Source: Somniosus microcephalus
Lineage: Eukaryota
Assembly: GCA_052327205.1 (NCBI GenBank)
Contig: CM126207.1
Coordinates: 180,048,001-180,112,000, forward strand
Direction of reading: 5' to 3'
Length of the DNA: 64,000 nucleotides
Part shown: piece by piece, positions 14,826-53,898 of the stretch
How the letters are laid out: every line of letters starts with the position of its first letter
Numbering within the stretch: position 1 is the stretch's first letter
Program-made: the position numbers and the translations under genes
Notes under the pieces: model-generated
Database searches by the model: none
Told to the model about the DNA's origin: nothing
What the model saw: only the letters and a program-made list of their open reading frames with translations

Positions 14826-14989
14826 GATGCCAAATGTGATGCCTTCCCAGGGTCGGACAGCCTGTCAGCAGCCATTCGGGCACAGTTGACTGTCACCTGT
14901 GGAATGGTATCCCAACAAGTCAATGCTTTCAGAAGAGGAGGAAGGGAGTGAAGGAAAGAAAAAACTACAAGGAAAAAGAACCAGGGGAA

Positions 14990-17662: not shown

Positions 17663-20530
17663 TCAGTATCCCGTCCCCGCCTTCTCTCCGTAACCCTTAA
17701 CCCCTTTTGCCCGTAGAAATATATCTAATTCCCTCTTAAATATATTTAATGAGCTGGCGTACACTGCCCTCTGTGGCAATGAGTTCCACAGGTTCACCAC
17801 TCTCTGAGTGAAGAAATTCCCCCTCATCTCTGTCCTAAATGGTTTAGCCCTTATCCTTAAATTATGTCCTCTAGTTCTGTTCTCACCCGCCAAGGGAAAC
17901 ATTCCTTCTGCATCCAGTCTGTCTAGACCTGTCAGAATTTTATACACTTCTATGAGGTCCCCTCTCAATCTTCTAAACTCCAGTGTGTACATCCCTAAAC
18001 TACATAGTCTCTCCTCATAGGTCATTCCCGCCATTCCTGGTATCAGCCTGGTGAATCGCCGCTGCACCCCCTCCATGGCAAGAACATCCTTCCTCAGATG
18101 AGGCGACCAAAACTGTACACAGTACTCGAGGTGTGGTCTCACCAGTGCCCTGTACAGCTGCAGCAAGGTATCCCTGTTCCTGTATTCTAACCCTTTTGCT
18201 ATGAAGGCCAGCATACCGTTTGCCTTCTTGACCGCCTGTTGCACCTGCATGCTCGCCTTCAGTGACTGGTGTACAAGAACACCCAGGTCTCTCTGTACTT
18301 CCCCCTCTCCCAATCTATTGCCATTTAAATAATAATTTGCCCTCCCGTTCCTGCACCCAAGGTGGATAACTTCGCACTTGTCCACATTATAGTGCATCTG
18401 CCATTTATCCGCCCAATCGCCCAGTCTGTCCAAATCGCTCTGGAGCTTCCTGGTCTCTTCCTCTGAGCCCACCCCCCCTCCTAGTTTAGTGTCGTCTGCA
18501 AATTTGGAAATGCTGCATCCGACTCCCTGATCCAGGTCATTAATGTAAATTGTGAACAGCTGGGGGCCCAGGACAGATCCCTGTGGTACCCCACTTGTTA
18601 CTGCCTGCCATTCAGAAAATGAGCCGTTTATTCCAACTCTCTGTTTTCTATCTGACAGCCAGTTCCCTATCCACGCCAAAACTTTCCCCTTTATCCCATG
18701 AGCCTCAATTTTCCATGCTAATCTTTTATGTGGGACCTTATCGAAGGCCTTTTGGAAGTCCAGGTACACCACATCTACTGGCTCTCCCCCATCTATTCTA
18801 CCAGTTACTCCCTCAAAAAATTCCAATAGATTAGTCAAGCACGATTTACCCTTTGTAAATCCATGTTGACTCTGTCCTATCCTGTCCCCATTTGCTAAGT
18901 GCTCCGCTATTTCATCCTTAATGATGGACTCCAGCATTTTGCCCACAACTGATGTAAGGCTTACAGGTCTGTAATTACCTGCTTTTTCCCTACCCCCCTT
19001 TTTGAATAGTGGGGTAACGTTAGCTACCCTCCAATCCATCGGCACTGTTCCCGAGTCTAATGAATTCTGAAAAATCATCCTTAGTGCATCCGCTATCTCT
19101 AGGGCCACCTCCTTCAGTACCCTAGGATGCATGTTATCAGGCCCTGGGGATTTGTCCACCTTCACTCCCTTTAGCTTCCTTAACACCATATCCTTAGAGA
19201 TATTGATTTGCGTCAGTTCCTCCTTTGCCAATGTCCCTATTTTTCCCAATATCCCAGGGAGGTTTTTTGTGTCTTCCTTCGTAAAGACTGACCCAAAGTA
19301 TGCATTTAGTTGATCTGCCATTTCCTTATTTCCCATTATATATTCCCCCGTATCTGACTGCAATGGACCAACTTTGGTTTTCACCAGTCTTTTCCTTTTG
19401 ATATATTTATAAAAGCTTTTGGAGTTAGTTTTTATATTTTCCGCCAGCTTGTTTTCGTAAGCTATTTTGCCCCTCTTGATCATGCCCTTTGCCCTCCTTT
19501 GCTCTATCTTAAACTGTTCCCAATCTTCCGCTCTGGCGCTTTTTTTGGCTATTTTATACGCCCTATCTTTGGATTTTATGCTGTCTCTAATTTCCCCTGT
19601 TATCCACGGTTGAGTCACCTTTTTAGATTTCCTTTTATGCCAGATTGGTATAAACAATTTTTGCAATTTTGTCATTCTATCTTTAAATGTTTGCCATTGT
19701 TTATCTACCTCCAGTCCTCCCAGGAACGTTGTCCAATCAGACCTACTCAGTTCCCGTCTCATGGCATCATAATTCCCCTTGTTTAAATTCAGGACCTTAG
19801 TCTCTGAGTCAATTTCTTCGCTCTCCATTTCGAGTGAGAAATCGATCATGTTATGATCGCTCTGACCCAAGGGTCCCCGTACAACAAGATTACTGATTAG
19901 TCCCTTCTCATTGCACAGTACCCAGTCCAATATAGCCTGTTCCCGAGTTGGTTCCTCGACATATTGATCCAGATAACCATCCCTTAAACACTCAAGGAAT
20001 TCCTCCTCCTCATTATTTTTACTGATTAGGCTAGTCCAATCTATATGTAAGTTAAAGTCACCTATGATGACAGCTGTGCTCTTATTGCACGCTTCTCTAA
20101 TTTCCCTCGTGATGCCCTCCCTAACCTCTATTTTACTATTTGGAGGCCTATATACCACTCCTATTAATGTTTTTCGCCCCTCGCTATTTCTTAGCTCCAC
20201 CCATATAGATTCTGTATTAACTGAGTTAATATCCTTCTTTTCAATTGCATTTATCCCCTCTTTTACTAGCAATGCTACCCCTCCTCCCTTTCTTTTTTGT
20301 CGATCCTTCCTAAATACTGAATACCCCTGTATGTTAAGCTCCCAGCCCTGCTCACCCTGCAACCATGTTTCCGTAATCCCAATTAGATCATAATTATTAA
20401 CCTCTATTTCCACAGCTAATTCATCTACCTTGTTCCTGATGCTTCTCGCATTAAGGTATAAAACCCTCAGGCTTTTTTTATGCTCACATTTTTTATGAAT
20501 TAGTTTGGCCCTTTGTTTTTTGTTCCTCAC
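17663..20530 (-). CDS. CR1 ORF2, APE endonuclease plus reverse transcriptase, 955 aa, uninterrupted
   Basis: LYLNARS, GITETW, VYRPP, IGDFN and SDHN (EN); YRPVSLTS, PQGSVLGP and FADD (RT). Confidence 0.95.
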   Translation of the reverse strand: MRNKKQRAKLIHKKCEHKKSLRVLYLNARSIRNKVDELAVEIEVNNYDLIGITETWLQGEQGWELNIQGYSVFRKDRQKRKGGGVALLVKEGINAIEKKDINSVNTESIWVELRNSEGRKTLIGVVYRPPNSKIEVREGITREIREACNKSTAVIIGDFNLHIDWTSLISKNNEEEEFLECLRDGYLDQYVEEPTREQAILDWVLCNEKGLISNLVVRGPLGQSDHNMIDFSLEMESEEIDSETKVLNLNKGNYDAMRRELSRSDWTTFLGGLEVDKQWQTFKDRMTKLQKLFIPIWHKRKSKKVTQPWITGEIRDSIKSKDRAYKIAKKSARAEDWEQFKIEQRRAKGMIKRGKIAYENKLAENIKTNSKSFYKYIKRKRLVKTKVGPLQSDTGEYIMGNKEMADQLNAYFGSVFTKEDTKNLPGILGKIGTLAKEELTQINISKDMVLRKLKGVKVDKSPGPDNMHPRVLKEVALEIADALRMIFQNSLDSGTVPMDWRVANVTPLFKKGGREKAGNYRPVSLTSVVGKMLESIIKDEIAEHLANGDRIGQSQHGFTKGKSCLTNLLEFFEGVTGRIDGGEPVDVVYLDFQKAFDKVPHKRLAWKIEAHGIKGKVLAWIGNWLSDRKQRVGINGSFSEWQAVTSGVPQGSVLGPQLFTIYINDLDQGVGCSISKFADDTKLGGGVGSEEETRKLQSDLDRLGDWADKWQMHYNVDKCEVIHLGCRNGRANYYLNGNRLGEGEVQRDLGVLVHQSLKASMQVQQAVKKANGMLAFIAKGLEYRNRDTLLQLYRALVRPHLEYCVQFWSPHLRKDVLAMEGVQRRFTRLIPGMAGMTYEERLCSLGMYTLEFRRLRGDLIEVYKILTGLDRLDAEGMFPLAGENRTRGHNLRIRAKPFRTEMRGNFFTQRVVNLWNSLPQRAVYASSLNIFKRELDIFLRAKGVKGYGEKAGTGY

Positions 20531-20604
20531 CCTTTTACCATTTATTTCTGTCTGCCTTTCACTTTCCTCTATTTCACTACATAGGTTTCTAGCCCCCTGC
20601 CATA

Positions 20605-20791
20605 CTAGTTTAAATGCTCCCGAACTGCTTTATCAAAAATTACCCCGAGAACATCAGTTCCATCTCTGCACAGGTGTAGACCGTCCCTTTTGTATAGGTC
20701 ACACCTACCACAAAACTGGTTCCAATGCCTCAAAAATTTAAAACCCTCCCTCTTACACCACTGCTCAAGCCACGTATTTAGCCTAACTATC
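20605..20791 (-). pseudogene. CR1 ORF1 C-terminal SGNH/GDSL esterase fragment
   Basis: LNTWLEQWCKREGFKFLRHW...LYKRDGLHL lies immediately upstream of ORF2. Confidence 0.8.
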
Positions 20792-22901
20792 CAGTTGTGA
20801 GATAATTCTTGATTTCCACAGTGAGAAGGTACAGAGGAGGAAGGATTTGCCAGACAGAGCATTGGAACTCAGAAGGAATAAGATAGTTCAGAGAATCTGA
20901 ATCAGCGAATCATATGGCACTTTCCTAGTATAAGTAGTATTAATAAAGTAACTATATCAGTGTATTGGTCAGGAGATACTCGAGAGGTCATTTTCTGAGT
21001 TTGCACTTCCGACACTGAGCATCACACGTTGGCAGGACCTATCGGAACACTGAGAGTAGCACGGAAGACAGAGAGTAGCACTCCCTCCCAATTTTCCATT
21101 CACCAGAACTAATCGGCGCCACATCAAATGGGCTGCACCATGGACACACAGTCCCTAACGCCCATATTCCAATACGCATACGCTCTGCACTGGGAGAACA
21201 AACCCCAAAAATGACCCCTTTGACATCTGCTTTGGGATTTCTGGTCTCTCTATCGCCCAAGCTCAGTTCTGCACCTTAGGGTGGCTGGGGTGCTACATCT
21301 CGGAAGACCACCAAGCATGGGTAGGATGCTCAGAGCCCCCCGGCAAATAGCCGAAAACACACTGGTGATCATCACATACTTTACTTAATCTTTTCTTGTT
21401 GGTGACCAGCGAAGCAGTATTTTCATGTTTCTATTTTGTATTTACCATTATTTATTTTGTTGTGATTTGTTGTTTAAAAAATAAATTGGGAAAAGGTTGT
21501 TCAATGCTGGATAAATGCACGGTGAGGTGGCTCAGTTAGACACAGGCCTGCCCACTAACTTATTTATAGTGGGATGGGAAACACGTGGCGAAAGAAAGGT
21601 TTATGGTTTTCACAGAAATAGTGAGCAGCAAAGAACCTCGCCTGCCTCTTTGGTTGCAAACAGTCCCATTGCTGTGTGATTATAAATCTCACTCCTGGCA
21701 GTTCCCAGATGTTGCAGGCGTGCCCAAGCATCAGACCTTTAGTGTAAGTGTAAGTACCAGGAACGAGATGTACTTACACTTACACTGAAGGACTGACACT
21801 GGAGTAAGTACCAGGAATGAGGTATACTTACCCCAGTGTCAATCCTTCAGTGTGAGGGTAAGTCAAGGAATGAGGTGTACTTACCCCAATGTCAGTCCTT
21901 CAGTGTGAGGGTAAGTCAAGGAATGAGGTGTACTTACCCCAGTGTCAGTCCTTCAATGTGAGGGTAAGTCAAGGAATGAGGTGTACTTACCCCAATGTCA
22001 GTCCTTCAGTGTGAGGGTAAGTCAAGGAATGAGGTGTACTTACCCCAATGTCAGTCCTTCAGTGTGAGGGTAAGTCAAGGAATGAGGTGTATGTTGTGTA
22101 TGTAATATGTGTGCTACTTTGAACCTATGGACAGGACTGCACAACTTGTTGGGCGTAGTGATACGCAGTACCACTCCTGGCCATAGGGGTATAAATAGTA
22201 CTGTGGGTACTGATCTCCCCTCAGTTCCCGCCTGTGGGCATGAAGTAAAGACCTACGTATAGTCCCTACCTCCAACCAGTAAAGACCTGTTTTATTGTTA
22301 CTGATTAAGTCTGAGTATTAATTACTTGAACAACTCACAGATTTAACACTGGCGACGAGTCTGATTCGGACCCTGCGGCAGTCACTCCACGGCAGCTTCG
22401 TCCACAGCCAGGACGTTGCAGAGAGGTTTCCACCCTCTCCACCCCACTGGAAGACATCCTGACCTCGGAGCCTCCATCGGCGACCGTCAGCTTCTTCTCC
22501 AGCTTGGTGGTGGGTAAGCCGTTGTCTGAGCCGGGCAGCGACGCGACAGGCAGTCGACCGCGTTGGCCGCACGAACGGGGCTGGGGGAGCTGGAGGAATA
22601 GGGCGCGAGAGCCGCTTCGAGCGGGAGGCGTTTCAACAGAGCGATCGCATCTCCTGATAAGAGCCGAGAGCCGCTTCGCGATCCAGCGATCGCATCCGCT
22701 GATAAGGGCCGCACTCGGGCGATCGCGGCGAAGATAAGGGCCGCACTCGGGGGCTGAAGGGAGACGGCGTTGGGGGACGGGTGAAGACCGCCAAGCGCGG
22801 GAAAACCGCCATTTTGTGGGCAGAGGACGACGGCAAGAGCGGGAAGCCGCCATCTTGGATAGCAGTAAAAAAAAAAAAATCTGAGAAATTGCAAATCTAC
22901 A

Positions 22902-24149
22902 ATGCCTAAACACGGGAATATTAGCACCTTTGATAGTGACCTCGAAGATTGGGCCATATATGTTGAAAGAGTAAAAAATTATTGTAAGGCCAATAAAATT
23001 CGTGACCAAGATAAAGCTCTAACATTATTAAATTTAATGGGTGCGAAGACATACGGGCAATTGAAACACCTGTTATCACCAGATGAACCGGCGGATAAGA
23101 CGTTCGATGAGATTGTTACTGTCCTGAAAGATCATCTGAACCCCACGCCGCTGATGCTAGCGGAACGATTTAAATTTTACGACAGAAGGCAGCTACAGCA
23201 TGAAAGCAATGCTGATTATTTGCTGGAATTGCGTAAATTAGCGAAATATTGCCAGTTTGGAACGGGACTGACAGATGCACTACGAGACAAATTTGTGTGT
23301 GGTTTATTTAAACAGGATACACAAAAGCGACTGCTCGAGGAGAATGAGCTGACGCTTGAGAAGGCGGTCACTATGGCAGCAGCACACGAAGCCGCAGCGA
23401 GAGGCACGGCAGTAATGCAGCTACGGTCACCGGAGCTCAGTGCACACAAATTGGGTGTGAGTTCTGGCAAATGTTATCGTTGTGGAAAGACAACGCATGA
23501 TCAGAACCAGTGTTGGTTTAAAAACCAAGAATGTAGAACTTGTGGTAGGCTTGGACATATAGCTAGAGTATGCAGGTCAGGGAAGAAGACCAGCAACAAG
23601 AAGTCACCGCAAGGAAAATACGCAAAGGTACACAAGGTGACCGAACAGGAGTCCGATTCAGACGCTAGCAGTAATGAACTGGCTAGCTTAAGCTGTAATG
23701 AACTGGCTAGCTTAAGAGTACTCAACGCTGGTAAGGGTGCAGACCTCCAGACAATTTGGGTCACTCTTCAGATAGAAGGAGTCCAAGTAAAACTGGAATT
23801 GGACACTGGATCGGCATTGACGGTCATAAATAAGAAAGATTACGGAAAGTTATTCCAACATATTCCCCTACAGGATACGGGGATTATATTGGAAACATAC
23901 ACGGGGCAAAGAGTGTACCCCATCGGGAAAATAGAGGTTGCAGTGGTCCACAAGGGCGAAGACAGTCAAATAATGGACTTATATGTGATATCTGAAGGAG
24001 GTCCTCCACTACTAGGACGGGAGTGGATTAGGAAAATGAATATGGACTGGCATTTCCTACAAACAATAACGAGTGAGAACTCGGTGAAGATAGTCGGCCC
24101 AGACTCTGGAACGGATGATGGTAAGCCCAACTCAGGTGCAAAAGACTAA
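22902..24149 (+). CDS. gag: Gag-protease of element C (415 aa, open)
   Basis: Close homolog of element B Gag-PR, with two CCHC knuckles, LDTGS and LLGREW. Confidence 0.9.
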   Translation: MPKHGNISTFDSDLEDWAIYVERVKNYCKANKIRDQDKALTLLNLMGAKTYGQLKHLLSPDEPADKTFDEIVTVLKDHLNPTPLMLAERFKFYDRRQLQHESNADYLLELRKLAKYCQFGTGLTDALRDKFVCGLFKQDTQKRLLEENELTLEKAVTMAAAHEAAARGTAVMQLRSPELSAHKLGVSSGKCYRCGKTTHDQNQCWFKNQECRTCGRLGHIARVCRSGKKTSNKKSPQGKYAKVHKVTEQESDSDASSNELASLSCNELASLRVLNAGKGADLQTIWVTLQIEGVQVKLELDTGSALTVINKKDYGKLFQHIPLQDTGIILETYTGQRVYPIGKIEVAVVHKGEDSQIMDLYVISEGGPPLLGREWIRKMNMDWHFLQTITSENSVKIVGPDSGTDDGKPNSGAKD

Positions 24150-25118
24150 GTTTCAGCACAGAATTCCACTGAGCAACAACAACATAGTTTAACTGTGGAT
24201 TCTGAGTCTGGCAAGTCTACTGATGTGCCCATTTCTGAGGGACACCGGGCTCGAACTCAACTCCATTTCAAACTACAACAGCAATTAGAACAAATGCTTC
24301 GCCGTTTTGAGCAAGAGTTGAATGCAACGAAAGAGTTCTTTGATATAGAGTTGGAGAATCTGGAAAGACAACAGAAGCAGCTGATGGAGAAAATGGAGCA
24401 GGAGCACACAAAACGTCTGATGTCAGAGGAGTTAACGGTCAGCCAACTCCTGCATATGCTGAAGGACAGGACTCTGAAATGGGAAAAACTTGAACACGAA
24501 CTTCAATATTCAAACGAAAGGGGTTCGGAGCTCTCAAAGGTTATTGGAAGAGCTGAGGTGGCAACACAGACTGAGATGACTGCAACAGAGCAGCCCTTGG
24601 ATGCCAAAAGTACGCTGACTCACGTCAACGTAGAACAACAGACCGCTGAAACAGCTGCTCCGGTAGAGGGATTGAATAGTCCGATCAATCAATCTCCAAA
24701 AGAAGTTGAAGTAGTAAAATCTCAAATGAGGTCATTAGTAAACGACTTGCTGAAAGCCCAGAAAAAGCTGGATGAAGAGGTACGCATGAAGAAGTCTCTT
24801 CAGGAAAGATGTCTGGACTTGGAACAAAAGCTGGCTAACGCCCAGCTGGGTATGGAGGAAATAGAAGACCCTCTCGCTGGCCTAGATCAGGACGACACCG
24901 AATATTACTATGTCCTGTCCTGCCCAACTTGTAACTTCGACTCCCACCATACAGAAATCATGGAGGAGCACCGAAAGTCTACGGAACATCGGGAGAAGGT
25001 GGCTCTACTACGGAAAAAGGAGGGAGAGAAGGAGGAACTGCGCATGCAGCTGGCAGCTGACAGTGGAGCCCAGAGAGTCTCCAAGAAGCAGAAAAGGAAA
25101 AGTCGAAACAGAAGATGA
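24150..25118 (+). CDS. In-frame continuation after a single TAA: chimeric coiled-coil / Zn-finger cargo protein
   Basis: Same frame as gag. The TAA at 24147 aligns with AAA in element E. Heptad-rich, ending in CPTC...H..S.EH and a basic tail. Confidence 0.8.
24237..24419 (+). other. STK10: Captured STK10/SLK coiled-coil fragment
   Basis: [42 protein letters not shown] versus recalled human STK10 [42 protein letters not shown]. Confidence 0.85.
24423..24830 (+). other. OPTN: Captured optineurin coiled-coil fragment
   Basis: EELTVSQLL...EVATQTE...[37 protein letters not shown] versus recalled human [13 protein letters not shown]...EIETQTE...[37 protein letters not shown]. Confidence 0.82.
24891..25118 (+). 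other. DNAJC21: Captured DNAJC21-like C2H2 zinc finger and basic patch
   Basis: LSCPTC...[18 protein letters not shown]...[10 protein letters not shown] versus recalled human LYCPAC...MKNHEKSKKHREMVALLK...QKLSKKQKKK. Confidence 0.72.
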
Positions 25119-26599
25119 CCCATCTGAACCATTATTACCTCTACCAGATCACACACGTGGTCCCTCCGAACGGAGCCAATTCAGTTCGGAAGTTCAAACT
25201 GTTAAATCCATGGAAGGACTATTGAATGAGTCACTCCAGCAACGTGAACCGACTCCACCACAGAGATTGAATCTGTGAACTGTTTTCCGCAGAGACTGAA
25301 TCTGTGATCTGTTTTGACATGAAGTTATCTATGTATCTATGTTATTCTGTTATGTAAACCTGAAGTTATATATGTATATATGTTATTACGTTATGTTAAA
25401 TGGGGAGATGACTGTAAAGCTAGGAAGGGAGGAATGTTGTGTATGTAATATGTGTGCTACTTTGAACCTATGGACAGGACTGCACTACTTGTTGGGCGTA
25501 GTGATACGCAGTACCACTCCTGGCCATAGGGGTATAAATAGTACTGTGGGTACTGATCTCCCCTCAGTTCCCGCCTGTGGGCATGAAGTAAAGACCTACG
25601 TATAGTCCCTACCTCCAACCAGTAAAGACCTGTTTTATTGTTACTGATTAAGTCTGAGTATTAATTACTTGAACAACTCACAGATTTAACAGTGTACTTA
25701 CCCCAATGTCAGTCCTTCAGTGTGAGGGTAAGTCAAGGAATGAGGTGTACTTACCCCAGTGTCAGTCCTTCAATGTGAGGGTAAGTCAAGGAATGAGGTG
25801 TACTTACCCCAATGTCAGTCCTTCAGTGTGAGGGTAAGTCAAGGAATGAGGTGTACTTACCCCAGTGTCAGTCCTTCAGTGTGAGGGTAAGTCAAGGAAT
25901 GAGGTGTACTTACCCCAATGTCAGTCCTTCAGTGTGAGGGTAAGTCAAGGAATGAGGTATACTTACCCCAATGTCAGTCCTTCAGTGTGAGGGTAAGTCA
26001 AGGAATGAGGTGTACTTACCCCAATGTCAGTCCTTCAGTGTGAGGGTAAGTCAAGGAATGAGGTGTACTTACCCCAATGTCAGTCCTTCAGTGTGAGGGT
26101 AAGTCAAGGAATGAGGTGTACTTACCCCAGTGTCAGTCCTTCAGTGTGAGGGTAAGTCAAGGAATGAGGTGTACTTACCCCAGTGTCAGTCCTTCAGTGT
26201 GAGGGTAAGTCAAGGAATGAGGTGTACTTACCCCAGTGTCAGTCCTTCAGTGTGAGGGTAAGTCAAGGAATGAGGTGTACTTACCCCAATGTCAGTCCTT
26301 CAGTGTGAGGGTAAGTAAACAGAATACATATTAACATACCATCTGACAAATAGAATGTCTACACAATGCCTCACTTCCATCTGCAGTTAGAAAGGCAGAT
26401 CAATATTATCAATTTTCAATTGAATGTAATTAAAATAAATATTCCAATTTTTTTGTTAATTTCAATATATCTCCTGTTTTCCTAACACCAATAAATTACA
26501 ATATAAACAGGAGGAATTCAGTAACACGAGGACAGAACAGATCAATAATGGATCATTAAATATAGCTGGAAATGAATGGCTGACTTACTGGGCCAACCC

Positions 26600-32670: not shown

Positions 32671-35600
32671 CAGGCAATACAATGGTAAGGGGGAACCTGA
32701 AACCAACCACAGTCACAGGCAGTGATGAATGGAATATTTCATCACATTCACCCCTTCTATAGATTTAGTCTGTTCGGGGGTTTGGTAGTCCTCTGCGACC
32801 GACGTGGCTGTTGTGGTGTCGCGGGTGTCGGCTGGGTGTCCCCGGTGGCCTCCTGGGTCTCTGCCGGGGGTGCCGCCAGGGTTGTTGAAGGGGTAGTTGG
32901 TGGGGGTGCCGTTGGTCGATTTTCTTCCGGGGGTGATGAAAGAGTAGTGGGTGGGTAAGAGTTGCTGTGGTCGTTGTTGCTGCTATTGCCGTGGTTGTTG
33001 TCGTTACCGGCTGGGGCGACGTCTTTTATTGACACGGTGTCCTCCCTTCCGTCGGCGTGCCGGACATACGCGTATTGGGGGTTGGCGTGGAGTAGGTGCA
33101 CTGGCTCCACGAGAGGGTCCGTCTTATGGCCCCTCACATGCCTTCGCACGAATACCGGACCCGGGGTGGAGAGCCATGACGGCATGGATACGCCTGAGGT
33201 GGATTTCCGGGGGAAGCTAAACATTCGTTCATGAGGCGTGGCATTAGTGGCAGTACACAATAGCGACCGTATCGAATGGAGCACATCTGAGAGGACTTCC
33301 TACCAGCGGGAGATAGGGAGGCCCTTGGTCCTTAGAGCTAGAGTGACTGCTTTCCATACTGTCCCGTTCTCTCGCTCCACTTGACCGTTACCCCGGGGGT
33401 TGTAGCTGGTGGTACGGCTCGTGGCGATACCCCTGGACAGCATGTACTGGCGTAGCTCTTCACTCATGAAGGACGCCCCCCTATCCGTGTGGATGTAGCT
33501 CGGCATACCGAACAGGCAGAACAGGCTGTTGAGGCATTTATTGACCGTGGCGCTGGTCATGTCTGGGCAGGGGAAGGCGAATGGGAACCGGGAGTATTCG
33601 TCCACAATGTTCAGGAAGTAAACATTGCGGTCGACGGACGGGAGGGGGCCCTTGAAATCTAAGCTGAGCCGCTCAAAGGGCCGTGTAGCTTTGATTAAGT
33701 GGGCTCTATCAGGGTGGTAGAACCGAGGCTTACACTCAGCGCAAGTGCGGCAGTTCCTGGTCAGAGACCGAACTTCCTCAATCGAGTAGGGTAAGTTGCG
33801 GGACTTTATGAAGTGGAACAGCTGCGTGACCCCTGGGTGGCAGAGGTCGTTGTGGAGGGTCTGTAGCCGATCCCCGGTGGCGCTGGCACACATCCCTCGT
33901 GAGAGGGCATCTGGGGATTCGTTAAGGGCCCCTGGCCAGTAAATGATGTCATACTCGAAGGTGGAGAGCTCGATCCGCCACCTAAGAATCTTATCATTTT
34001 TAATCTTCCCCCTCTGTTTATTATTGAACATAAATGCTACCGACCGCTGGTCGGTAAGTAGGGTGAAGCGTTTGCCGGCTAGGTAGTGGCGCCAGTGGCG
34101 CACTGCCTCCATGATGGCTTGGGCCTCCTTTTCCACGGAGGAGTGTCTGATCTCGGGCCCTTGGAGGGCCCTCGAGAAGAAAGCTACGGGCCGCCCCGCC
34201 TGGTTGAGGGTGGCCGCCAAGGCGAAGTCAGACGCATCACTTTCCACTTGAAATGGAGTGTTCTCGTCCACTGCCTGTAGCGTGGCCCGCTCAACATCCT
34301 GCTTAATGCTTTTGAAGGCGGTGTGGGCCTCAGCAGAGAGCGGAAAAGAGGATGCTTTCAAGAGGGGGCGGGCTTTGTCGGAGTAGTTGGGGACCCATTG
34401 GGAATAATAAGAAAATAACCCCAGGCACCTTTTCAGGGCTTTGGGAGTGTTGGGCAGGGGCAGCTCCCGTAGGGGGCGCAATCGGTCGGGGTCTGGTCCG
34501 ATTTCCCCATTCTCCACCACGCTGCCTAGTATGCAGAGGCGCGTGGTGTTGAAAACGCACTTGTCCTCGTTGTAGGTGAGGTTGAGTTTTTGTGCGGTTT
34601 TCAGGAACCTCTCGAGGTTCGAGTCGTGATCCTGCTGGTTGTGACCGCAGATGGTGACGTTGTCGAGGTAGGGGAAGGTTGCCTGCAAGTGGTGGTCATC
34701 GACCATGCGATCCATCTCCCTCTGGAAGACCGAGACCCCATTCGTCACCCCAAAGGGGACTCTGAGGAATTGGTAGAGGCGTCCGTTCGCCTCGAAGGCG
34801 GTGTACGGGCGGTCCTCTGGTCTGATAGGGAGCTGGTGGTACGCTGACTTGAGGTCGATGGTGGAGAACACCCGGTATTGGGCGATTTGGTTCACCATTT
34901 CTGATATGCGGGGTAGCGGGTAGGCGTCTAGTTGGGTGTACCTGTTGATCGTTTGGCTATAGTCGATCACCATCCGTTTCTTCTCGCTACCCCTTACCAC
35001 CACCACTTGGGCGCGCCACGGGCTATTGCTGCATTCAATAATGCGCTCTTTCAGGAGCCTGTCTACCTCGGTTGCGATAAACCGCCTGTCCTCCCAGCTG
35101 TACCTCCTGCTTTTGGTCGCTATTGGCCGGCAGTTAGGGGTAAGGTTCGCGAATAGCGAAGGCGGCTTTACCTTCAGGGTAGCCAGGCCGCACACTGTGA
35201 GGGGCGGCTGGGACCCACCGTACTTGAGCGTGATGCTTTGGTGGTTGCACTGGAAATCCAGGCCCAAGATCACGCTCGCGCATAGATTCTTCATGATTAA
35301 TACTTTAAAATTATCGTATACAGTCCCGTTAACGGACAATTGTACCGTGCAGTAACCCAGAATGGTCGATGTCTGGGTTTTATCAGCCATAGAGATGGTA
35401 CCCCGAGTAGGGACCACCTTTAGGGAGAGTTGTCGTGCCAGTTCCGGGTGGATAAAACTCTCCGTGCTTCCACTGTCAATTAAACATTTAACCCCGCACC
35501 CGTTTACCTCGATGTCCACCATTGATTTGGATAGCGGGTGGGGCCTGGTCTGGTCCACTGTGACCGATGCCACTGTAGGGCCCTGATCGAGACAAGATGG

Positions 35601-36870
35601 TGTCCGCGCTGTCTGCTCACAAGATGGCAGACCCCACGAGGTCGGGCAAGATGGCGTCCAAGATGGCCACTCCCACGGCGCACACGCGGCGGTGGCGGGT
35701 TTTGGTTTTCCAGCGGGGTTCCCTCTGCACACCTTCCCAAAGTGCCCCTTCTTACCGCACTTAAAGCAGGTGGTGCCTTTCGCCGGGCACAGGTTTCTGG
35801 TGTGCTTTGGCTGCCCGCAGAAGTAGCAGTTGGGTCCCCGACGCGTCGCGGCTGTCGTAGGGCTTCTGGGGGGAGAGCGGGGCCCCAACGGTGTCGGGCT
35901 GCCGGGCGGGGAAGATGCCTTCCAAGATGGCGGCGCCCTTGGTGCACACGTGGCAGCGTGGACGGCGCGGGCTGAAGAGTAGGCGTCCGAGTTTCTCTGG
36001 GCCACATCCAGGGATCGCGCGGTGTCCGCAGCCTGTTTCAGGTCCAATCCCGTTTTTTCCAGCAGTCTTTGCCGGATGTAAGTGGAGCTGAGGCCTGTGA
36101 TAAAGGCATCGCGAACAAGCTCGTCGGTGTACACTGCGGCTTTTACATCTCGGCACTTGCAGTCTTTGCCAAGCATTTTCAGGGTGCCTAGGAACTCCTC
36201 CACCGATTCCCCAGGTCGCTGTGCGCGAGTGGCGAGCAGATGCCTAGCATACACCTCATTCGTAGGCTGCTGGTAATGCGCCTTTAAGATGTCACAGGCG
36301 GCCAGGTACGTGTCGGCGTCTTGGATGAGGGGGTAAACCCGGTGGCTTACCCAATTCCGCAGAATTCCGAGTTTCATACTCGCAGCGTCCGTAGCGTCTT
36401 TGACGGCTGCGGAATTGTCCAGGAAGAATTCCATACACATAAACCAGTGTCCGAAGCATGCTGATGCGTCCGGAGCATGCTGATCCAAATCCAAACGTTC
36501 GGGTTTCAGGAGTTGATCCATTGTGTTGAAAAATAAGTTAATACAATTGATGTGCCTCAATAATCCCGAGACTCGATGTCAGCGAAACAAAACAAGGCTT
36601 TTATTAACTTAGAAGATAACACGCAGTGGAGAGAGGTATCTTCCCTGGAGGTCTGCAGTACTGGCTGTGAGGCCAGACTGAGCTGGCTTACATAGAGGCC
36701 AGGTATGGGCGGAGCCCTACACAGAACACATTCCATACATTCCAATACACAATACAATGGTGAGGAGAAACCTGAAACAAACCAACCACAGTCACAGGCA
36801 ATACAATGGTAAGGGGGAACCTGAAACCAACCACAGTCACAGGCAGTGATGAATGGAATATTTCATCACA
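32671..36870 (-). mobile_element. Ty3/Gypsy element D (different lineage, YLDN RT), 3' LTR truncated
   Basis: 5' LTR at about 36870-36548 (TGTGATG...CACATCA). Only 76 bp of the 3' LTR remain (32746-32671). PPT GAAGGGGTGAA. Confidence 0.9.
32757..36521 (-). pseudogene. Single gag-pol ORF of element D with one nonsense codon at 33300
   Basis: Start MDQLLKPERL, two CCHC knuckles, IDSGS, YLDN, ESDAS, HTDRG. ORFs 33300-36560 and 32757-33284 share a frame. Confidence 0.92.
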
Positions 36871-45395: not shown

Positions 45396-48300
45396 GAAAA
45401 TTGCAGACCTGGATTATGTCCCCTCTCGACCTTTTTTTCTCCAATCAAAACAAGTTCCATTCAGTGAGTCTTTTCCATAACATAAGAGCCCCAAGTCCCA
45501 AAATTATCCTGGTCCCTCCTTTTGAAAGTGCCCAAATTGCACATAAAATTATTTTTCAACATGGGTAGAGATGATTTGGCCCCACAAACCTTATAAAATT
45601 GAGGAATGAAATTAGTGAAACTGTAAATGACATTTTTTCATGAGTTTATTAAATTCAGGAGAGATTCCAGGGAAAAGGAAAGTGGCTAACATAAATCCAT
45701 TATTGGACCTGTCAAGTCTTATTCACGTGCAGTAAGATGCACTTATTCAGGTTTAACCTATTTTGCTGTATTTCACGCCAAATAGTAAACAGAGCTCCAG
45801 CTGTTTAAATAGGCTTGTGATCTCCCTTACTAATTTTGATGATAAATTATATATCCATGAAACTGACAACTGCGCATTTTTCATGGGCCAAGAGGCAGAC
45901 TTGGAAAATCTAGACTCTAGTAAATATAACAGCAGTTGTGGCGAACTTTCAATCAAATTTTGAGAGGTTTGGTGGGTGAACACTTGGAAAAGCGGAATTT
46001 ATTGAAGGACAGGATTTGGAAAGGGTGACCATGTTTAACTAACATGCTGGATTTTTTTTTTAAAAAGATGTTACTAATATGGGGGCATGGAGAAATGCAC
46101 CTGATGTTATATCTGATACCAGCTGATCTTCTGCGGCATCGGCTCCTGTGGCACAGGTAGCCTGTAATCTAGAGCATGGCTGTGATGGTTAGCCACGGAT
46201 GTGGCCTGCCCCCTTAAGGTCACTGTTTATGTATTGGGATGTGGTCTAAATAGGTCAATTATGGGTGAATTGTTGTTCAAATTTTCTCCAGACTGCACAG
46301 ATCCTTTTCTTGAGCAGAAGCCAGGTTATCTGATACTCAGACAAAACAGCAGGAAATAACTTGCTTTCTTTCACTTTCTTTGTAATTGTTTTTTTAAGAT
46401 TGCTGAGATGCGATTTTTATGATGTTTCATAGAAATATTACACCTGAAACGTGACGTAGGAACAGGAGTAGGCCCTCGAGCCTGTTCCGCCATTCAATTG
46501 GATCATGGCTGCTCTGTACCTCAACTCCATTTACCCACCTTCGCTCCATATCCCTTGACACCCTTACCTAACAAAAATCTATCAATCTGTTTTGAGAGTT
46601 CCAATTGACCCAGCTTCGACAGCATTTCGGAGCAGAGAATTCCAGATTTCTATTAGCCTTTGTGTGAAAAAGTGTTTCCTGATTTCCCTCCTAAATGGCC
46701 GAGCTCTAAATTGAAGATTATGTCCCCTTGTTCTTGATTCCCCCAACAGAGGAAATAGTTTCTCCGTATCTGTAGTGTATGTACCCGTCTACCTTTAAGA
46801 GAACTATTGTATGTAACCGTTCATCTTTAAGAGAACTACTTTAGGTGTGGCACTACTTGTTTGGCTTCTGTATACTGTAATACCGACGGTGACCACACCG
46901 GTATATAAGTGTTGTGGCATGATTCCTTGGGCAGATTCGCCCTGACCTTCGAATAGTAAAGACCTGTTTGTTTGTTATTCCTGAAGCCTGTGTCGTTATT
47001 AACTGTACAACCCACAGACTTTACAGTGGCGACGAGTCCGATCGTACCCTGCGGCAAGACTACCAAAGCAACTAAAGAGCGTCGAAGAGAGGCAACCGCC
47101 CTCGTCGTTCTGCTGGAAGAAAACATGAAGCTGCAGCAATAGAAAGGAGGAAGACTTTAGCAACAAAAGCTTCCATCAGCAACAGGCACTGACTACCCTT
47201 CTACCACGGTGCGGAGTGAGCCGATCAGCAGGAAACAAGGCGGCCGCGGAGACTGTGAGTAGGGGAAAGTGTAAAGAATATCCGGAGGATAAGGGCTGTG
47301 CACTCGACCACGGTCGAGGGGGAGCGGAGCCGGTCAGAAAGTCGGGTCCAACGGCGTCGTGAGACAGCCGGACTGCGATCGGCGGGAAAAAGCCGGGCAG
47401 CGACCGAAGCCACGAAGCGCTGAGACCGGGAGCAGGCGCGGGAAGAGAGAAACTCAGCCGCAGCCGGGGAGGGAAGCACCGGACTGCGTGAGGGCTGGGA
47501 GGCGAACGGGAACAGAGCGTGTGGGAGAGGCAGAGCCGACCAAAGGAGGCTGCGCGAGAGCCAGTCCAGCGGCTGAACTGTCCTCCACCAACGGGGTACC
47601 CAGCGCCGGTAGAGCCGAGTGTGCGGGAGAGAGACAGAGCCGAGCAAGGGGAGAGAGACTGCGCGAGAGCCAGTCCAGCGGCTGAACTGTCCTCCACCAA
47701 CGGGGTACCCAGCGCCGGTAGAACCGAACGTGCGGGAGAGAGAAAGACAGAGCCAAGTAAGGGGAGCTGTGCGAGAGCCAGCCCAGCGGCTGAACCTGTC
47801 CGTTGTGGGGAAAGCGTACCCCTTCCACCAGGGAAGAAACGCGGGAAGCCGCCATTAGGCGGCGAAGACAACAGAAGCGGGAAACCGCCATTGAAGTGGG
47901 TGGGGAGAGAAGGAAAGAGCGGGAAACCGCCATTTTCGCGGGAAAAGCCGCCATCTTAGGGAAAAAAAAAGAAAAAAATTGTGTTGTACCCAAGGAAAGG
48001 AAGATGCCTAAGCGGGGGGACATCAACGATTTTAATTCTGAGATAGAAGACTGGGCCACGTACATGGAACGTATTGAGATACATTGTAAGGCTAACAAAA
48101 TAGCTAAGGATGAAAAAGCTTTAACCTTACTTAACATGATGGGTGCGAAAACATTCGGGTTGTTGAAGCATCTTCTCTCACCAGCTAAACCGGCGGATCA
48201 GACTTTCGATGATATTGTAGCAGTGCTGAAGGATCACTTGAACCCCACACCGTTGATACTGGCTGAACGATCCAAATTCTATGCAAGAACGCAGAAGACG

Positions 48301-49385
48301 AAAGCAACACGGAATACTTGGTCGAACTGCGTAGGCTAGCGGAACACTGCCAGTTCGGAGGGAATCTGACAGAGGCACTGCGAGACAAGTTCGTATGTGG
48401 ATTGTCCAAAGAAGGGACGCAAAAGCGACTACTGGAAGAGAACGACCTCACACTAGACAGGGCTGTCCTTATAGCTGCATCGCACGAAGCCGCAGCGAAA
48501 GGAACGGCGGAAATGCAGCTAAAGGCGGCGGCACTCGGGGTGGACCAAATTACCTCAAGTACAACAAAATGCTATCGTTGTGGGAAGACAACACACGACC
48601 AGAATCAATGCTGGGTTAAGAACCAAGAATGTAGGAAATGTGGCAAACTGGGTCACATCGCTAAGGTATGCCGGTCAGGGAAGAAGACCAACAACCAAAG
48701 GAAGCCACCACAAGAAAAGTACAACAAGGTACACAAGGTGGCTGAGAAGAGTTCAGACGAACAGAATACAGACTCAGACCCAAACAGCCAGGAGCTGGGT
48801 AGTCTGAGAATTCACAATGTGAGTAAGGAAGCTGACCTACAAACTATCTGGGTCATACTAAAAATAGCTGGAGTCCAAGTAAGAATGGAGTTGGACACTG
48901 GATCAGCTCTATCAGTCATAAATCGAAGGGACTACCACCGGCTATTCTCTCACATACCCTTAAGAAATACCAAGTTCGTATTGCAGACATACACGGGGCA
49001 TAAGGTATACCCCATGGGGAAGATAAGAGTCAAGGTGAGAGATAGGGGTAAAGAACACCCAAGAATGAACTTGTACGTATTATCTGAGGGAGGACCACCA
49101 CTTCTAGGACGAGAGTGGATCAAGAAAATAGACATGGAATGGCACTATCTAAAAGCCATAATGAGTGAGGACTCGGTGCAAGCTATCAGCTCAGATTCTG
49201 AAACGGATGACGATAAGACCAACTCAAATATGGAAGACAAGGCTAAAATGAACTTGCCGACTATGGTGGAGAAAACGAAGACATGCATAAAGGCTTATGC
49301 CACCGAGAAGAATAAAGCTTCAGAGCAGAACTCCAGTTTGACAGAGAATTCTGAGCCTGTTCAAGTTAAGGACTTATCCACGACG

Positions 49386-49532
49386 GAAGAACACCGAACT
49401 CGGACTCAAACTTATTTCAAAGTACGACAACAATTAGAACAGTTGAGTTACCGTCTCGTACAAGAGATGAAAACAATGGAAAAGTTCTGGGACACCGAAT
49501 GGGAGAACCTGGAAAGACAGCAGAGGCAGCTA
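49386..49532 (+). other. STK10: Captured STK10/SLK fragment (diverged homolog of 24237-24385)
   Basis: EEHRTRTQ...QQLEQ...KFWDTEWENLERQQRQ. Confidence 0.78.
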
Positions 49533-49601
49533 GCTCAAGCAAAGAGCGACCATAGAGCCATCGTGACCAATTACCGATCACATCTCCCTTATGATGTTCA
49601 G
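49527..49601 (+). other. ANKRD24: Captured C-terminal motif of the ANKRD24/RAI14/UACA family
   Basis: QLAQAKSDHRAIVTNYRSHLPYDVQ versus recalled human ANKRD24 [25 protein letters not shown]. Confidence 0.62.
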
Positions 49602-49634
49602 GAGTTAGAATATTTGCATGATCTAGAGATACAG

Positions 49635-50105
49635 CATAAAGGCAAACCACGCTACACTGAGGATTTTGTTCTGCAATTGGAGACGGAGCTAGTGCAAGCA
49701 AGGTTAAGAGAAGCTGAATCGCAGTGTGCACTTAAAGATATGCAGAAAAAAATCTTGGACATGGAAAAGAGAAACGCTTCTTTACCTGATGTGAATAATG
49801 TGGCCATGTTGCAAGAGGAGCTTATAGGGGCGAAACTGAAAGAAGCTAAGCAAAGGATGTTGGAACTTGAAACACAGAACCAAATCAGCAGTAACCAGCT
49901 ATGTCGAGCAGAGAAGGAGTGCTATGGTCTACATGAGAAGGTGCAATATCTCTCAGCCCAGAATAAGGGACTACTCACTCAGTTAAATGAAAGTAATCGG
50001 AAAATGGCTGAGATAGACTGCAAGAATAAAGAAGATTTGATGGCAGTGAGACTTCGAGAGGCAGATAGCATAGCAGCCTTGGCTGAACACCAACAGGAAA
50101 TTGCG
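49635..50105 (+). other. EVI5: Captured EVI5 coiled-coil fragment with an in-frame internal deletion
   Basis: EDFVLQLETELVQARLREAESQCALKDMQ, EKVQYLSAQNKGLLTQL and MAVRLREADSIAA are near-identical to recalled human EVI5. Confidence 0.9.
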
Positions 50106-50729
50106 AAAGAAGCAAATGAAGAGGAATCTTCAGGAAGCCAGGATGTTATTCCAGTTCTTCTCTACGACTCCTTACAAGCAGAGTGTGAGAAGTTGAAAGA
50201 ACAGTATGAACAGGCCCAGGCTACAATTCTGGAGGGGGTTAACTCGGCAACCTCCGAAAAGCTAGTTTCAGTAGAAGCATATGAACAACTAAAGGTTGAA
50301 CATGAGCAAGAAGTCCAAAGGCTGCAGGAAATTCTTGATGAGCTCAAGGCCAAGACAGACTCATCGGTAGAAGTTCCATCCATAGATGAGAAATTAGAGG
50401 GGAAAGACATGGCAGAACATGAAAGACAAGATGTCCAAGAACTCATAAAAATATTGAAGGAAACCCAAGACAAATATGAGGCGGCAATGTCCAAGGTTCA
50501 ACAACTTGAAGAACAGATTCAACTGGGAATCCTTTCAGTGGAAGAAAAGGAAACTGTAAGAAACACAGAGACTGTAAGAATGGTCCCTGAACATGAGCTA
50601 GAGAGCATCAGGGCGCAACTTTTCCGAGCGCTGAAAGCCAAAGTACAAGAGGAACAGAAGGTGGAAGCATTGGAGGAAAAGGTGGATGAAATGGAGAAGA
50701 CTCTGATCCACAGTGTTCCCGTGGAAGAG
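50106..50729 (+). other. ANKRD24: Captured central coiled-coil of the ANKRD24/RAI14/UACA family
   Basis: DVIPVLLYDSLQAE versus recalled ANKRD24 EVIPLALYDSLRAE. ETQDKYEAAM...QIQLGILS resembles the RAI14-family motif ETQ.KYEEAM...QMKLGLVS. Confidence 0.68.
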
Positions 50730-51100
50730 TTAACGGTCAGCCAACTCCTTCATATGCTGAGGGAAGAGACTCTGCAATGGGAACAATCTGAACACGAGCT
50801 TCAATCTTCAACGGGAAGGAGTTCGGAGCTCTCAAAAGTTTGGGAAATAGCTGAGGTTGCAAAACAGACTTTACTGGGATGCCAAAAGTATGCTGAATCG
50901 CGTCTATGTGAACAACAGAATGTTGAAACAGCTGCTCCAGTAGAAGGATTGAATAGCCCGATCAATCAATCCCTGAGGGAAGGGGAAGTGTTGAAATCAC
51001 AAATGAGGTAATTAGTGAAGGATTTGCAGGAAACCCAGGAAGAGCGGGATGAAGATGAATGCATGAAGAAGTCTTTTCAAGAAAGATGTCTAGGGAAGGA
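50724..51100 (+). other. OPTN: Captured optineurin fragment
   Basis: [15 protein letters not shown]...MKKSFQERC, homologous to 24423-24830. Confidence 0.78.
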
Positions 51101-51200
51101 ACCACAGTCAGCTAACGTCCAGATGGGTAAGGAGGAAGTAGAAGGCCCTCTCGCTGGCCTAACTCAGGACGAACCCGAATATTACCATGACCTGTTGAGT

Positions 51201-51386
51201 GACACTGAATATTACGAGGATGTGGTCTGCCCAGTTTGTGATGAAAACTCCCAAAGTGCCGAAATCAGGATGAAGCACTTAAAGTCGAAGGAACATAGAG
51301 AGTTGGTGGCGCTACAGCTGGCAGCTGATAAGGGAGCCCCGAGAGTCTCCAAAAAGCAGAAAAGAAAAAGAAGAAGCAGAAGATGA
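51201..51386 (+). other. DNAJC21: Captured DNAJC21-like zinc finger and basic tail
   Basis: YEDVVCPVCD...HLKSKEHRELVAL...[11 protein letters not shown]. Confidence 0.7.
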
Positions 51387-53898
51387 TAACTATCGCAAAT
51401 ATTATCACTTCTACCAGATCATGCGTGGACCCTACGAAAGGAGTTAAATCAGTTGGGAAGTAGGAAAATATCAAGGCAACCCAGTTGTTGTAAAAGTCAG
51501 CACTGCTGGTTCAGCAGGACGAAAATTCAAGCTGTTACGTCAAGAAAAGGATATGGAGGAGTCACGCTAGCAATGTGAACCATCTACACCAAAGAGATGT
51601 TGTTCGGACCGAGTCAAGATCAGAGACTGAATCTGTGAACTGTTCCCGCAGAGACTGAACCTGTGAACTGTTTCCCACCGAGACTATGTCTGTAAATTGT
51701 TTTATATGAAGTTGAAGATATGTTATGTTTAATGGGGACTCTGTATGTAATAAGCTAAAAAGGGAGGATTGTAGTGTATGTACCCGTCTACCTTTAAGAG
51801 AACTATTGTATGTAACCGTTCATCTTTAAGAGAACTACTTTAGGTGTGGCACTACTTGTTTGGCTTCTGTATACTGTAATACCGACGGTGACCACACCGG
51901 TATATAAGTGTTGTGGCATGATTCCTTGGGCAGATTCGCCCTGACCTTCGAATAGTAAAGACCTGTTTGTTTGTTATTCCTGAAGTCTGTGTCGTTATTA
52001 ACTGTACAACCCACAGACTTTACAGTATCTCCTCTATCGAATCCTTTTAACATTAGCACCTCAATCAGATCGTCCCTCAATCTTCTAAAGTGATGAAATA
52101 ACGTGTGATCTCTCAAGTATGACAGATGAGCTGAGCACAAGATTCTTTATAAACGGGTACCTCTGGCCAGTCTGAAACGGACGTGAATTTCTGCAATTCA
52201 AGTGGTTAGTACAGCCTACAGTTACATGTAACCCAATGTCCAGTCTCTAAAAAAAATCCCAGATCGAAAAAAATTAGAGTGAGGTATGAATTATCAGTTT
52301 CTCTGTAGCATGGATATGGCACAGAAAATAGGGGAAATCTAAAGACTTCAGATTAGCTGTATAAGAACATAAGAAATAGGAGCAGGAGTAGGCCATTTGG
52401 CCCTTCGAGGCTGCTCCGCCATTCACTAAGATCATGGCTGATCTTCTACCTCATTTCCACTTTCCTGCACTATCCCCATATCCCTTGATTCCCTTAATAT
52501 AGGATCATAGAAAGTTACAGCACGGAAGGAGGCCATTTCGGCCCATCATGTCTGCGCCAGTCAACAAAGAGCTATCCAGCCTAATCCCACTTCCCAGCTT
52601 TTGGTCCGTAGCCCTGCAGGTTAGAGCATCCCAAGTACTTTTTAAATGTGGTTAGGGTTCCTGCCTCTACCACCCTGTCAAGCAGTGAGTTCCAGACCCC
52701 CGCAACCCTCTGGGTGAAGACATTTCCCCTCAAATCCCCTCTAAACCTTCCCCCAATTACTTTAAATCTGTGCCCCCTGGTTTTTGACCCCTCTGCTAAG
52801 GGAAATAGGTCCTTTCTATCCACTTTATCTATGCCCCTCATAATTTTATACACCTCAATAAGGTCTCCCCTCAGCCTCCTCTGTTCCAAGGAAAACAGAC
52901 CCAGCCTATCCAGTCTTCCTCATAGCTAAGATTCTCTACTCCCGGCAACATCCTTGTAAATCTCCTCTGTACCCTCTCTAGTGCAATCACATCCTTCCTG
53001 TAATGTGGTGACCAGAACTGCACGCAGTACTCTAGCTGAGGCCTAACTAGTGTTTTGTACATTTGAAGCATAACCCCCCCTGCTCTTGTATTCTATGCCA
53101 CGGCTAATAAAGGCAAGCATTCCGTATGCCTTTTTAACCACCTTATCTACTTGGCCTGGACATGCACTCCAAAACCCTTTGTTCCTCTACACTACTCAGT
53201 GTCCTACTATTTAATGTGCATTCCCTTTCCTTGTTAGCCCTCCCCAAATGCATTACCTCACACTTCTCCGGATTGAATTCTATTTGCCACTGTTCTGCCC
53301 ACCTGACCAATTTATTGACATCTTCCCGCAGTCTACAGCTTCCTTCTTCAGTATCAAACACACAGCCGATTTTAGTATCTGCAAACTTCTTAATCATACC
53401 CCTATATTCAAGTCAAGATCGTTGATATATACCACAAAAAGCAAGAGACCTAGAACTGAGCCCTGCAGAACCCCACTGGAAACAGCCTTTCAGTCACAAA
53501 AACACCTATCAACCATTACCCTCTGCTTCCTGTCTCCGAGCCAGTTTTGAATCCAACTTGACATTTTGCCCTGGATCCCATGGGCTTTTAACTTCGTAAC
53601 CAGTCTGCCATGTGGAACCTTATTAAAAGCCTTGATAAAGTCCATATACACTACATCAAATTCACTACCCTCATCTACCCTCCTTGTTACCTCCTCAAAA
53701 AATTCAATCAAGTTTGTCAGACACGACCTTCCCTTAACAAATCCGTGCTGACTATCCTTGATTAATCAGTGTTTTTCTAAATGAAGATTTATCCTGTCCT
53801 TCTTTCCAATAATTTTCCCACCACCGAGGTTAGGCTGACTGGCCTGTAATTACTCAGTTTATCCTTTTCTCCCTTTTTAAACAAGGGTACCACATTAG

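Follow-up and report, generated by a model that had tools for sequence, protein, structure and literature searches.

A stretch of 64,000 nucleotides from the genome of Somniosus microcephalus (hereafter the window) contains, at 46771..52024, a young non-autonomous long terminal repeat (LTR) element of the Gypsy type, the element under study, in which the gag-protease frame continues into a mosaic of pieces from five host genes. As judged from natural intermediates, which show the order of capture, these pieces were acquired serially and nested one within another, starting with a kinase gene of the STK10 type and ending with EVI5, which lies inside a piece of an ankyrin gene. Because three of the captures (STK10-type, ankyrin gene and EVI5) carry back-splice-type junctions, their templates were probably circular RNA (circRNA) rather than mRNA. 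The residues of this cargo are near-neutral while its frame stays open.

Host exons in the place of pol

As the first-pass annotation of the window had proposed, the element is recent: its two LTRs differ at a single base of 255 (position 46987), and it shows a GTATC target site duplication (TSD), a primer binding site (PBS)-like motif and a polypurine tract (Table 1). The first 12 bases of the PBS-like motif are common to two other elements of the window, and 13 are shared with the Pol-bearing one. That annotation also had a Gag-protease frame running into non-retroviral protein, which holds for the ~740 codons after gag-protease, where a domain search of the window element found no reverse transcriptase (RT), RNase H or integrase core, but the window copy is broken twice, by a 4-base loss near 48298 in gag and by a stop at 51009-51011 in the optineurin piece. 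Moreover, the description of all pieces as sense and in frame has to be qualified, since in the optineurin and STK10 pieces short runs between compensating indels lie in another frame.

All five parent loci were found in the same genome (G000, 6.4 Gb), and the cargo matches their exons with the introns removed at splice sites; introns are missing from every colinear exon joint examined, so that the segments cross exon joints as expected of spliced host RNA. Protein searches recovered EVI5 (E 1e-70), an ankycorbin-like protein (68% and 78% identity) and optineurin (E 3e-22), and gave zero matches with the window copy's STK10/SLK piece and zinc-finger tail. At the DNA level these two pieces match exons of single parent loci (72-84% and 78-87%), reaching 91-99% in less diverged sister copies. 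A Pfam search of the window copy found no PKK domain; the same domain searched in the genome gave 150 scored places among 16,568 candidates, and 19 of the 20 fetched were sister elements with the same gag-protease (81% at the DNA level) and a better-kept kinase piece. Altogether, the five pieces map to exons of parent loci, and the gene names proposed earlier hold, with the choices of STK10 over SLK, of ANKRD24 and of DNAJC21 drawing partly on sequence features.

The kinase parent (C8:167.2 Mb; 167.19 Mb, minus strand) is one of two close paralogues and is presumably STK10 rather than SLK, partly by sequence features. The ankyrin/coiled-coil parent, labelled 'ankycorbin' (C13:62.9 Mb), we take to be of the ANKRD24 type from its N-terminus; the EVI5 and optineurin parents lie at C3:348.0 Mb and C17:85.9 Mb. 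The zinc-finger parent (C1:4.8 Mb) has, on a single strand, two zinc-finger motifs separated by 21 kb, from which it is assumed to be DNAJC21, the Atlas serving as a lead only; a further lead, PF21884, pointed to a presumably DNAJC2-like locus without match to the cargo and was dropped. Sequence searches of the PDB with the cargo returned no parent, the 'Pizza' matches being repeat artefacts. Within the pieces, STK10 runs from the middle of exon b over a skip into the last part of exon c, which is joined by splicing to exon d; EVI5 shows one 64-codon loss, with 49770-49813 assigned by protein alignment only; and the zinc-finger parent matches at 51266-51315 and 51342-51386. Two observations concern the host loci themselves. 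Host optineurin (G000:C17:85884780-85885370, L067) has two single extra bases found in none of the aligned element copies, either an assembly error or a broken allele, and locus L031 (G000:C3:354658271-354658948) is an intron-less 3' coding end of an STK10-type gene with no adjoining element sequence.

The first-pass annotation had placed the pieces end to end, with two separate ANKRD24 segments. Instead, the two ankyrin-gene pieces are a single capture interrupted by the EVI5 insert, and intermediates show that the pieces are nested. Copies carry STK10 only (L038), STK10 and zinc finger (L073), STK10 and a long optineurin piece (L080, L081), or STK10, optineurin and zinc finger (L074; window 22091-25694), and L072 has the ankyrin gene without EVI5, the ankyrin piece standing in place of the STK10-optineurin joint. 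The EVI5-less joint 49618>50107 was present in 4/4 sequencing runs examined. Identity to the parent climbs with nesting, from STK10 (72-84%) through zinc finger (78-87%) and optineurin (82-90%) to the inner ankyrin (93-96%) and EVI5 (mostly 95-98%) layers. The switch junctions read have 4-10 bases in common and keep the parental frames. The introns absent and the intermediate subfamilies thus bear out the earlier proposal of a non-autonomous element that serially captured spliced host RNA.

Sister elements widen this picture. The second cargo element of the window (22091-25694), with LTRs 99.2% alike, gag-protease, STK10, optineurin and zinc finger, is flanked by a 53-base tandem repeat at 21723-22091 and 25692-26319; in the tree, its gag-protease does not group with the other cargo subfamilies, which suggests that cargo moved between gag lineages. 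Another subfamily (L032-L050) joins the STK10 circle to I-set Ig domains in tandem, which a PDB search alone likens to titin, and to an arginine-rich altered integrase tail. L036 (and L033 and L040, by the same gap) has an extra in-frame insert of ~150 aa between protease and STK10 piece, which seems to us to resemble KMT2A/KMT2B and is a candidate sixth or seventh captured gene. The EVI5-less L072 copy (1-3134 region) lies antisense in its own ankyrin parent, inside an intron, and L070, a Pol-bearing relative, antisense within an EVI5 intron.

A genome search with the cargo gave 4,570 candidates, and 40/40 scored matches were full length at 99-100%; misassembly is excluded on these grounds. 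The 30 loci fetched are the ones most similar to the window copy; in 13 of them a single frame runs from gag to tail without a break (1,128 aa, counted from the first Met), 24 have a cargo free of stops, and all 16 copies with the 5' end fetched have two LTRs (0-14 mismatches) and a 5-base TSD of their own, so that the copy number, independent insertions and open frames looked for after the first pass were all found. The 30 copies are related in a star, since more than one variant is common to none of their groups, and their shared stops look recurrent; the star shape rules out inherited clades as the source of these stops. A domesticated host gene, expected to be a single fixed locus with purifying selection on residues, does not fit the multi-copy state, a cargo omega of 0.80 and the broken window copy.

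Table 1. Landmarks of the cargo element, in window positions
Feature	Position	Strand	Remarks
TSD GTATC, left copy	46766..46770	.	
5' LTR	46771..47025	+	255 bases, TG...CA ends
PBS-like motif	47027..47039	+	TGGCGACGAG at 47027
GC-rich leader	47040..48003	+	~109-base tandem repeats
gag	48004..48850	+	two CX2CX4HX4C knuckles at 48567-48674; 4-base loss near 48298 in window copy
Aspartic protease	48858..49124	+	Pfam gag-asp_proteas, below cut-off in window copy, above in relatives
STK10-type kinase piece	49163..49531	+	72-84% to parent exons
Ankycorbin-like/ANKRD24-type whole late exon	49536..49601	+	93%, parent C13:62873348-62873413
Ankyrin gene, start of earlier giant exon	49602..49618	+	acceptor C13:62861849
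EVI5 piece, circularly permuted	49619..50104	+	88-98% to parent
Ankyrin-gene giant exon, continued	50105..50730	+	96%
Optineurin piece, three exons joined in gene order by splicing	50724..51085	+	82-90%, parent C17:85.88 Mb
C2H2 (jaz/met-type) zinc finger and basic tail	51140..51386	+	at least 2 spliced exons, gene at C1:4.79 Mb
Decayed, mostly untranslated STK10-derived stretch	51369..51561	+	exon a end spliced to exon b start
Integrase C-terminal tail remnant	51559..51636	+	by eye against Pol-bearing relative
Polypurine tract	51751..51769	+	identical in Pol-bearing relative
3' LTR	51770..52024	+	255 bases
TSD GTATC, right copy	52025..52029	.	

Back-splice-type junctions in three captures

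Exon order is reversed in three of the parents, namely the ankyrin gene and EVI5 in the window copy and STK10 in sister copies, and in 3/3 reversals a GT donor is joined exactly to an upstream AG acceptor in codon phase 0, across 11.6 kb (ankyrin gene), 45.5 kb (EVI5) and 6.5 kb (STK10). At the ankyrin junction (49601|49602) the late-exon donor C13:62873413 leads to the first base of the giant exon, C13:62861849. The EVI5 junction (49634|49635) links the last-exon donor C3:348013503 to the first-exon acceptor C3:347968011; the donor pattern has one exact genomic match, at that position, plus 38 one-mismatch matches elsewhere, and the acceptor a single match 45.5 kb upstream. In L036, L038, L043 and L073, the STK10 junction joins the exon end C8:167191933 to the acceptor 167198433 (single matches; 94-99% identity). 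As patterns, the ankyrin junction occurs at 4,034 places in the genome, the STK10 junction at 1,140 and the ankyrin-EVI5 joint at 1,956, with reversed-pattern controls of 0. The earlier idea of captured spliced host mRNA therefore stands in its first part: the templates were spliced, but for the three captures with back-splice-type junctions they were probably circles.

The EVI5 and STK10 pieces begin and end at the same few bases, as after one lap of a circle. In EVI5, 49619-49634 corresponds to an exon end, and after the junction the spliced exons lead back to the four-base entry site TTGC. In L043 and L080, STK10 is entered at C8:167197008-167197005 and left at 167196995, and the piece begins behind an RT-start stub and ends where the integrase tail begins. 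The window copy is without the STK10 junction and keeps the permuted order, the earlier exons lying in its 3' untranslated part (51369-51561) in a stretch which ends, in parent coordinates, beside the place where the 5' STK10 piece begins. As a separate observation, the long optineurin piece of L081, compared with C17:85879049-85890333, begins 8 bases past an exon start and stops at an exon end, an extent that fits a near-complete lap of a circle, yet no back-splice junction is found there.

Open frame, candidate helper and transcripts

A codon model with transition bias gave an omega of 0.14 for gag and 0.19 for protease (p<1e-7), and of 0.49-1.00 for the cargo segments (lowest p 0.06), the pooled 507 codons reaching 0.80 (p=0.21); purifying selection on cargo residues, as read from the NG86 method, was not upheld by this model. 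On the other hand, no stop was gained in 594 cargo codons, versus a mean of 10 in neutral simulation (stop-free runs, 0/2000), and indel sums in the STK10 and optineurin parts are multiples of three; over its 192 bases, the untranslated STK10-derived stretch shows 8 small indels. In every subfamily, copies that look intact have their stop ~80-390 bases from the 3' LTR, mostly after a basic tail, which comes from the zinc-finger gene in the window lineage and from the altered integrase tail in the sisters, L038 having the plain integrase tail. The cargo is most likely a translatable spacer that does not act via the functions of the parent proteins, a role preferred because long 3' untranslated regions (UTRs) expose retroviral RNA to nonsense-mediated decay (PMC2925335). 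A need for the basic C-terminal tail is the alternative reason for the open frame.

RT and integrase would be borrowed in trans from a Pol-bearing relative. One such element lies at 9504-14826, with the same PBS start and polypurine tract and with 74% (gag-protease) and 70% (LTR) identity to the cargo element; both it and a second Pol-bearing Gypsy relative, at 3911-9106, are broken in these copies. Single frames of at least 1300 aa occur in ~40 of the 101 best relatives scored (counted by eye) in this young Pol family, and the autonomous relative has the protease-RT-RNase H-integrase order of Ty3/Gypsy elements. With a single gag-pol frame, two CCHC knuckles and the RT-RNase H-integrase order, these relatives are presumably of the Mag type, a label set by these features; the cargo element differs in being without pol.

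Transcripts were found as well, and the strand evidence expected of expression came from one of two RNA runs. In X23, labelled organism B, which is not known to be the species of this genome, 21,027 of 16.65 million reads fall on the region, mostly 90-99% alike, and the first mate is ~5-100x deeper on the minus than on the plus strand across gag and cargo, consistent with sense RNA in a usual stranded library. X24 gave 17,007 of 14.4 million reads and no clear strand. Contigs under labels A and C also cover the element, and one of these may be the source sample. At window position 47013, in the 5' LTR, 89 X23 molecules end, at a possible RNA start or alignment edge. Elsewhere in the window, a more distant gag-bearing element has a 1092-codon frame (33303-36578, minus) and a LINE-like frame spans 988 codons (17666-20629, minus).

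Mechanism, alternatives and precedents

We hold it to be quite probable that a lineage making Gag and protease, with borrowed RT and integrase, switched templates onto co-packaged circRNAs and mRNAs and kept the resulting cargo as an open-frame spacer. A Ty3/Gypsy lineage would make its own Gag and protease, and the RT and integrase would come from a Pol-bearing relative. In the particle, RT would switch between element RNA and co-packaged host RNAs at microhomologies of 4-10 bases, and cross the back-splice junction of at least three circular templates (STK10-type, ankyrin gene and EVI5). On STK10 and EVI5 it would circle once, run into template that had been copied and then degraded by RNase H, and return at the same microhomology. 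The STK10 circle would have been captured first, replacing everything in pol between the RT start and the integrase tail, with optineurin, the zinc-finger gene, the ankyrin gene and EVI5 then inserted inside earlier cargo and with subfamilies recombining. Only products whose single frame stays open until close to the 3' LTR would spread, the spacer keeping the stop near the RNA end, which may avoid long-3'UTR decay, and/or supplying a basic C-terminal tail. We also lean, if only slightly, towards the broader proposal that retrotransposon particles of this fish lineage routinely package host circRNAs, which RT copies in exactly one lap before going back to the element, so that the family would be a dated germline record of circRNAs and a recurrent, high-copy exon-shuffling machine whose survival needs a Gag frame open to a basic C-terminal tail.

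Several points weigh against this account. The circularity of the templates is read from genomic junctions and not from observed circRNA of these genes; the pieces from optineurin and the zinc-finger gene are colinear, and for the latter a guessed circle acceptor had 2 matches versus 4 in the control, a chance level at which it was discarded; the ankyrin piece does not make a full lap, and L038 leaves the STK10 circle early. Furthermore, 17 of the 30 fetched copies are broken or incomplete, and the LTR of the candidate helper is only 70% like that of the cargo element. The junctions could also stem from linear templates only, with RT jumping back within an mRNA at exon-end microhomology, or from trans-spliced or exon-repeated linear RNAs. 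All other junctions use microhomology; linear mRNA gives 4 bases of it at the ankyrin junction, exon ends share the consensus CAG|G, both EVI5 exon ends encode IQ, so that a longer match is possible there, and a back-jump on one linear mRNA would likewise halt at the entry site. Non-colinear junctions can, in addition, have other origins (Dong et al., PMC4897178). Against this, 3.1% of in-frame position pairs in such sequence share at least 4 bases, which gives each mRNA thousands of possible landing pairs versus tens of exon-boundary pairs; by a rough estimate, a linear jump would hit a donor-acceptor pair in less than 1 in 100 events and would have to do so three times, and the forward skips in STK10, EVI5 and optineurin fall on a splice-site pair in 0/3 cases. 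We thus regard linear templates as an unlikely source, and circular ones as the better account of the three reversals.

Selection on the cargo protein itself, a long coiled-coil Gag extension that would shape particles or disturb host pathways (optineurin in autophagy, EVI5 in Rab traffic), seems to us a little less likely again. Four of the five pieces are rich in coiled coil, single-sequence structure prediction is all helix at low confidence (pLDDT 58), sense transcripts are plentiful in X23, and NG86 places cargo omega at 0.3-0.5 with intervals below 1 (0.31 for STK10, 0.46 for optineurin), a result that weighs against the neutral spacer too and makes weak selection on cargo residues possible. 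With transition bias modelled, however, no cargo segment departs significantly from an omega of 1; cargo is exchangeable between subfamilies, with Ig domains in place of coiled coils; the pieces hold none of the parents' catalytic or recognised functional domains; and the A-rich composition (36% A) alone could favour coiled-coil pieces. DNA-level capture, segmental duplication or misassembly can be practically dismissed: nothing was found in their favour, and against them stand the cleanly missing introns, the distinct TSDs and paired LTRs of 16/16 copies, the thousands of junction copies and the element's presence in contigs from runs that bear two organism labels.

In-frame fusions of host sequence with gag are familiar from the acutely transforming retroviruses, whose gag-onc fusions are replication-defective and helper-dependent. 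Those are somatic, hold one or two genes and are selected for protein function, whereas the shark element is germline, envelope-less and built from five genes with near-neutral residues. The first-pass annotation knew of no multi-gene Gypsy cargo family in vertebrates; multi-gene LTR capture as such has at least two precedents. In maize, Bs1 (Elrouby and Bureau) is an LTR element with three transduced cellular genes in a chimeric, transcribed and translated frame (PMC13317346, PMC5131818); it differs in being a plant element with three genes described as a new chimeric gene, and the available passages on it mention neither back-splice junctions nor thousands of copies nor a subfamily series. 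In animals, LTR-mediated retrocopies include a four-gene mouse 'Super' retrocopy (Tan et al. 2016, PMC5131818), and the accessible text describes host RNA that took the place of internal open reading frames (ORFs) at microhomologies, chimeras of several genes, sense and often in-frame fusions and re-mobilisation as non-autonomous elements. The shark family shares both marks of such retrocopies, intron-less host sequence replacing internal ORFs and microhomology at the switch points. By the same text, retrocopies are few per species (5/7 in zebrafish), the older ones mostly broken, and the word 'circular' does not occur; the shark lineage, by comparison, is long-lived, has thousands of copies and keeps its frame open through up to ~25% divergence.

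The mark of circRNA-derived retrocopies, a non-colinear donor-to-upstream-acceptor junction, is present here in three genes. In mouse, 33 circRFWD2-derived pseudogenes flanked by MMERVK10C-int, with a mechanism stated as unknown (PMC4897178), likewise have a non-colinear exon junction in genomic copies beside LTR-element sequence. That case concerns one gene and pseudogenes, in contrast to three genes in one shark lineage with 30-100x more copies, visible switch points, one-lap permutation and a gag-fused open frame. The available part of PMC12747553 holds nothing further on circRNA-derived genomic copies, and in the openly accessible literature searched, neither the family nor recurrent capture of circRNAs within a single LTR lineage nor any one-lap capture was found described. 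Multi-gene LTR capture and circRNA copies beside LTR sequence (mouse Rfwd2) are thus already known; the scale, the circRNA signature and the frame selection were not found in the literature searched.

The mechanism of circRNA retrotransposition was left open by Dong et al. (PMC4897178). In the shark the switch points are visible three times and predict one, namely co-packaging, one lap and return at the same microhomology, which would offer a specific path from circular RNA into genomic DNA. In these genomes, gene annotation, read mapping and circRNA calling will be confounded by the transcribed exon copies, which number in the thousands, are nearly identical and are up to 98-99% like STK10, OPTN, EVI5 and the ankyrin gene. 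More generally, a vertebrate LTR element can apparently swap pol for arbitrary host coding sequence and outlast ~25% divergence under open-frame selection alone, which bears on how non-autonomous elements may escape RNA surveillance and on the origin of new multi-domain genes.

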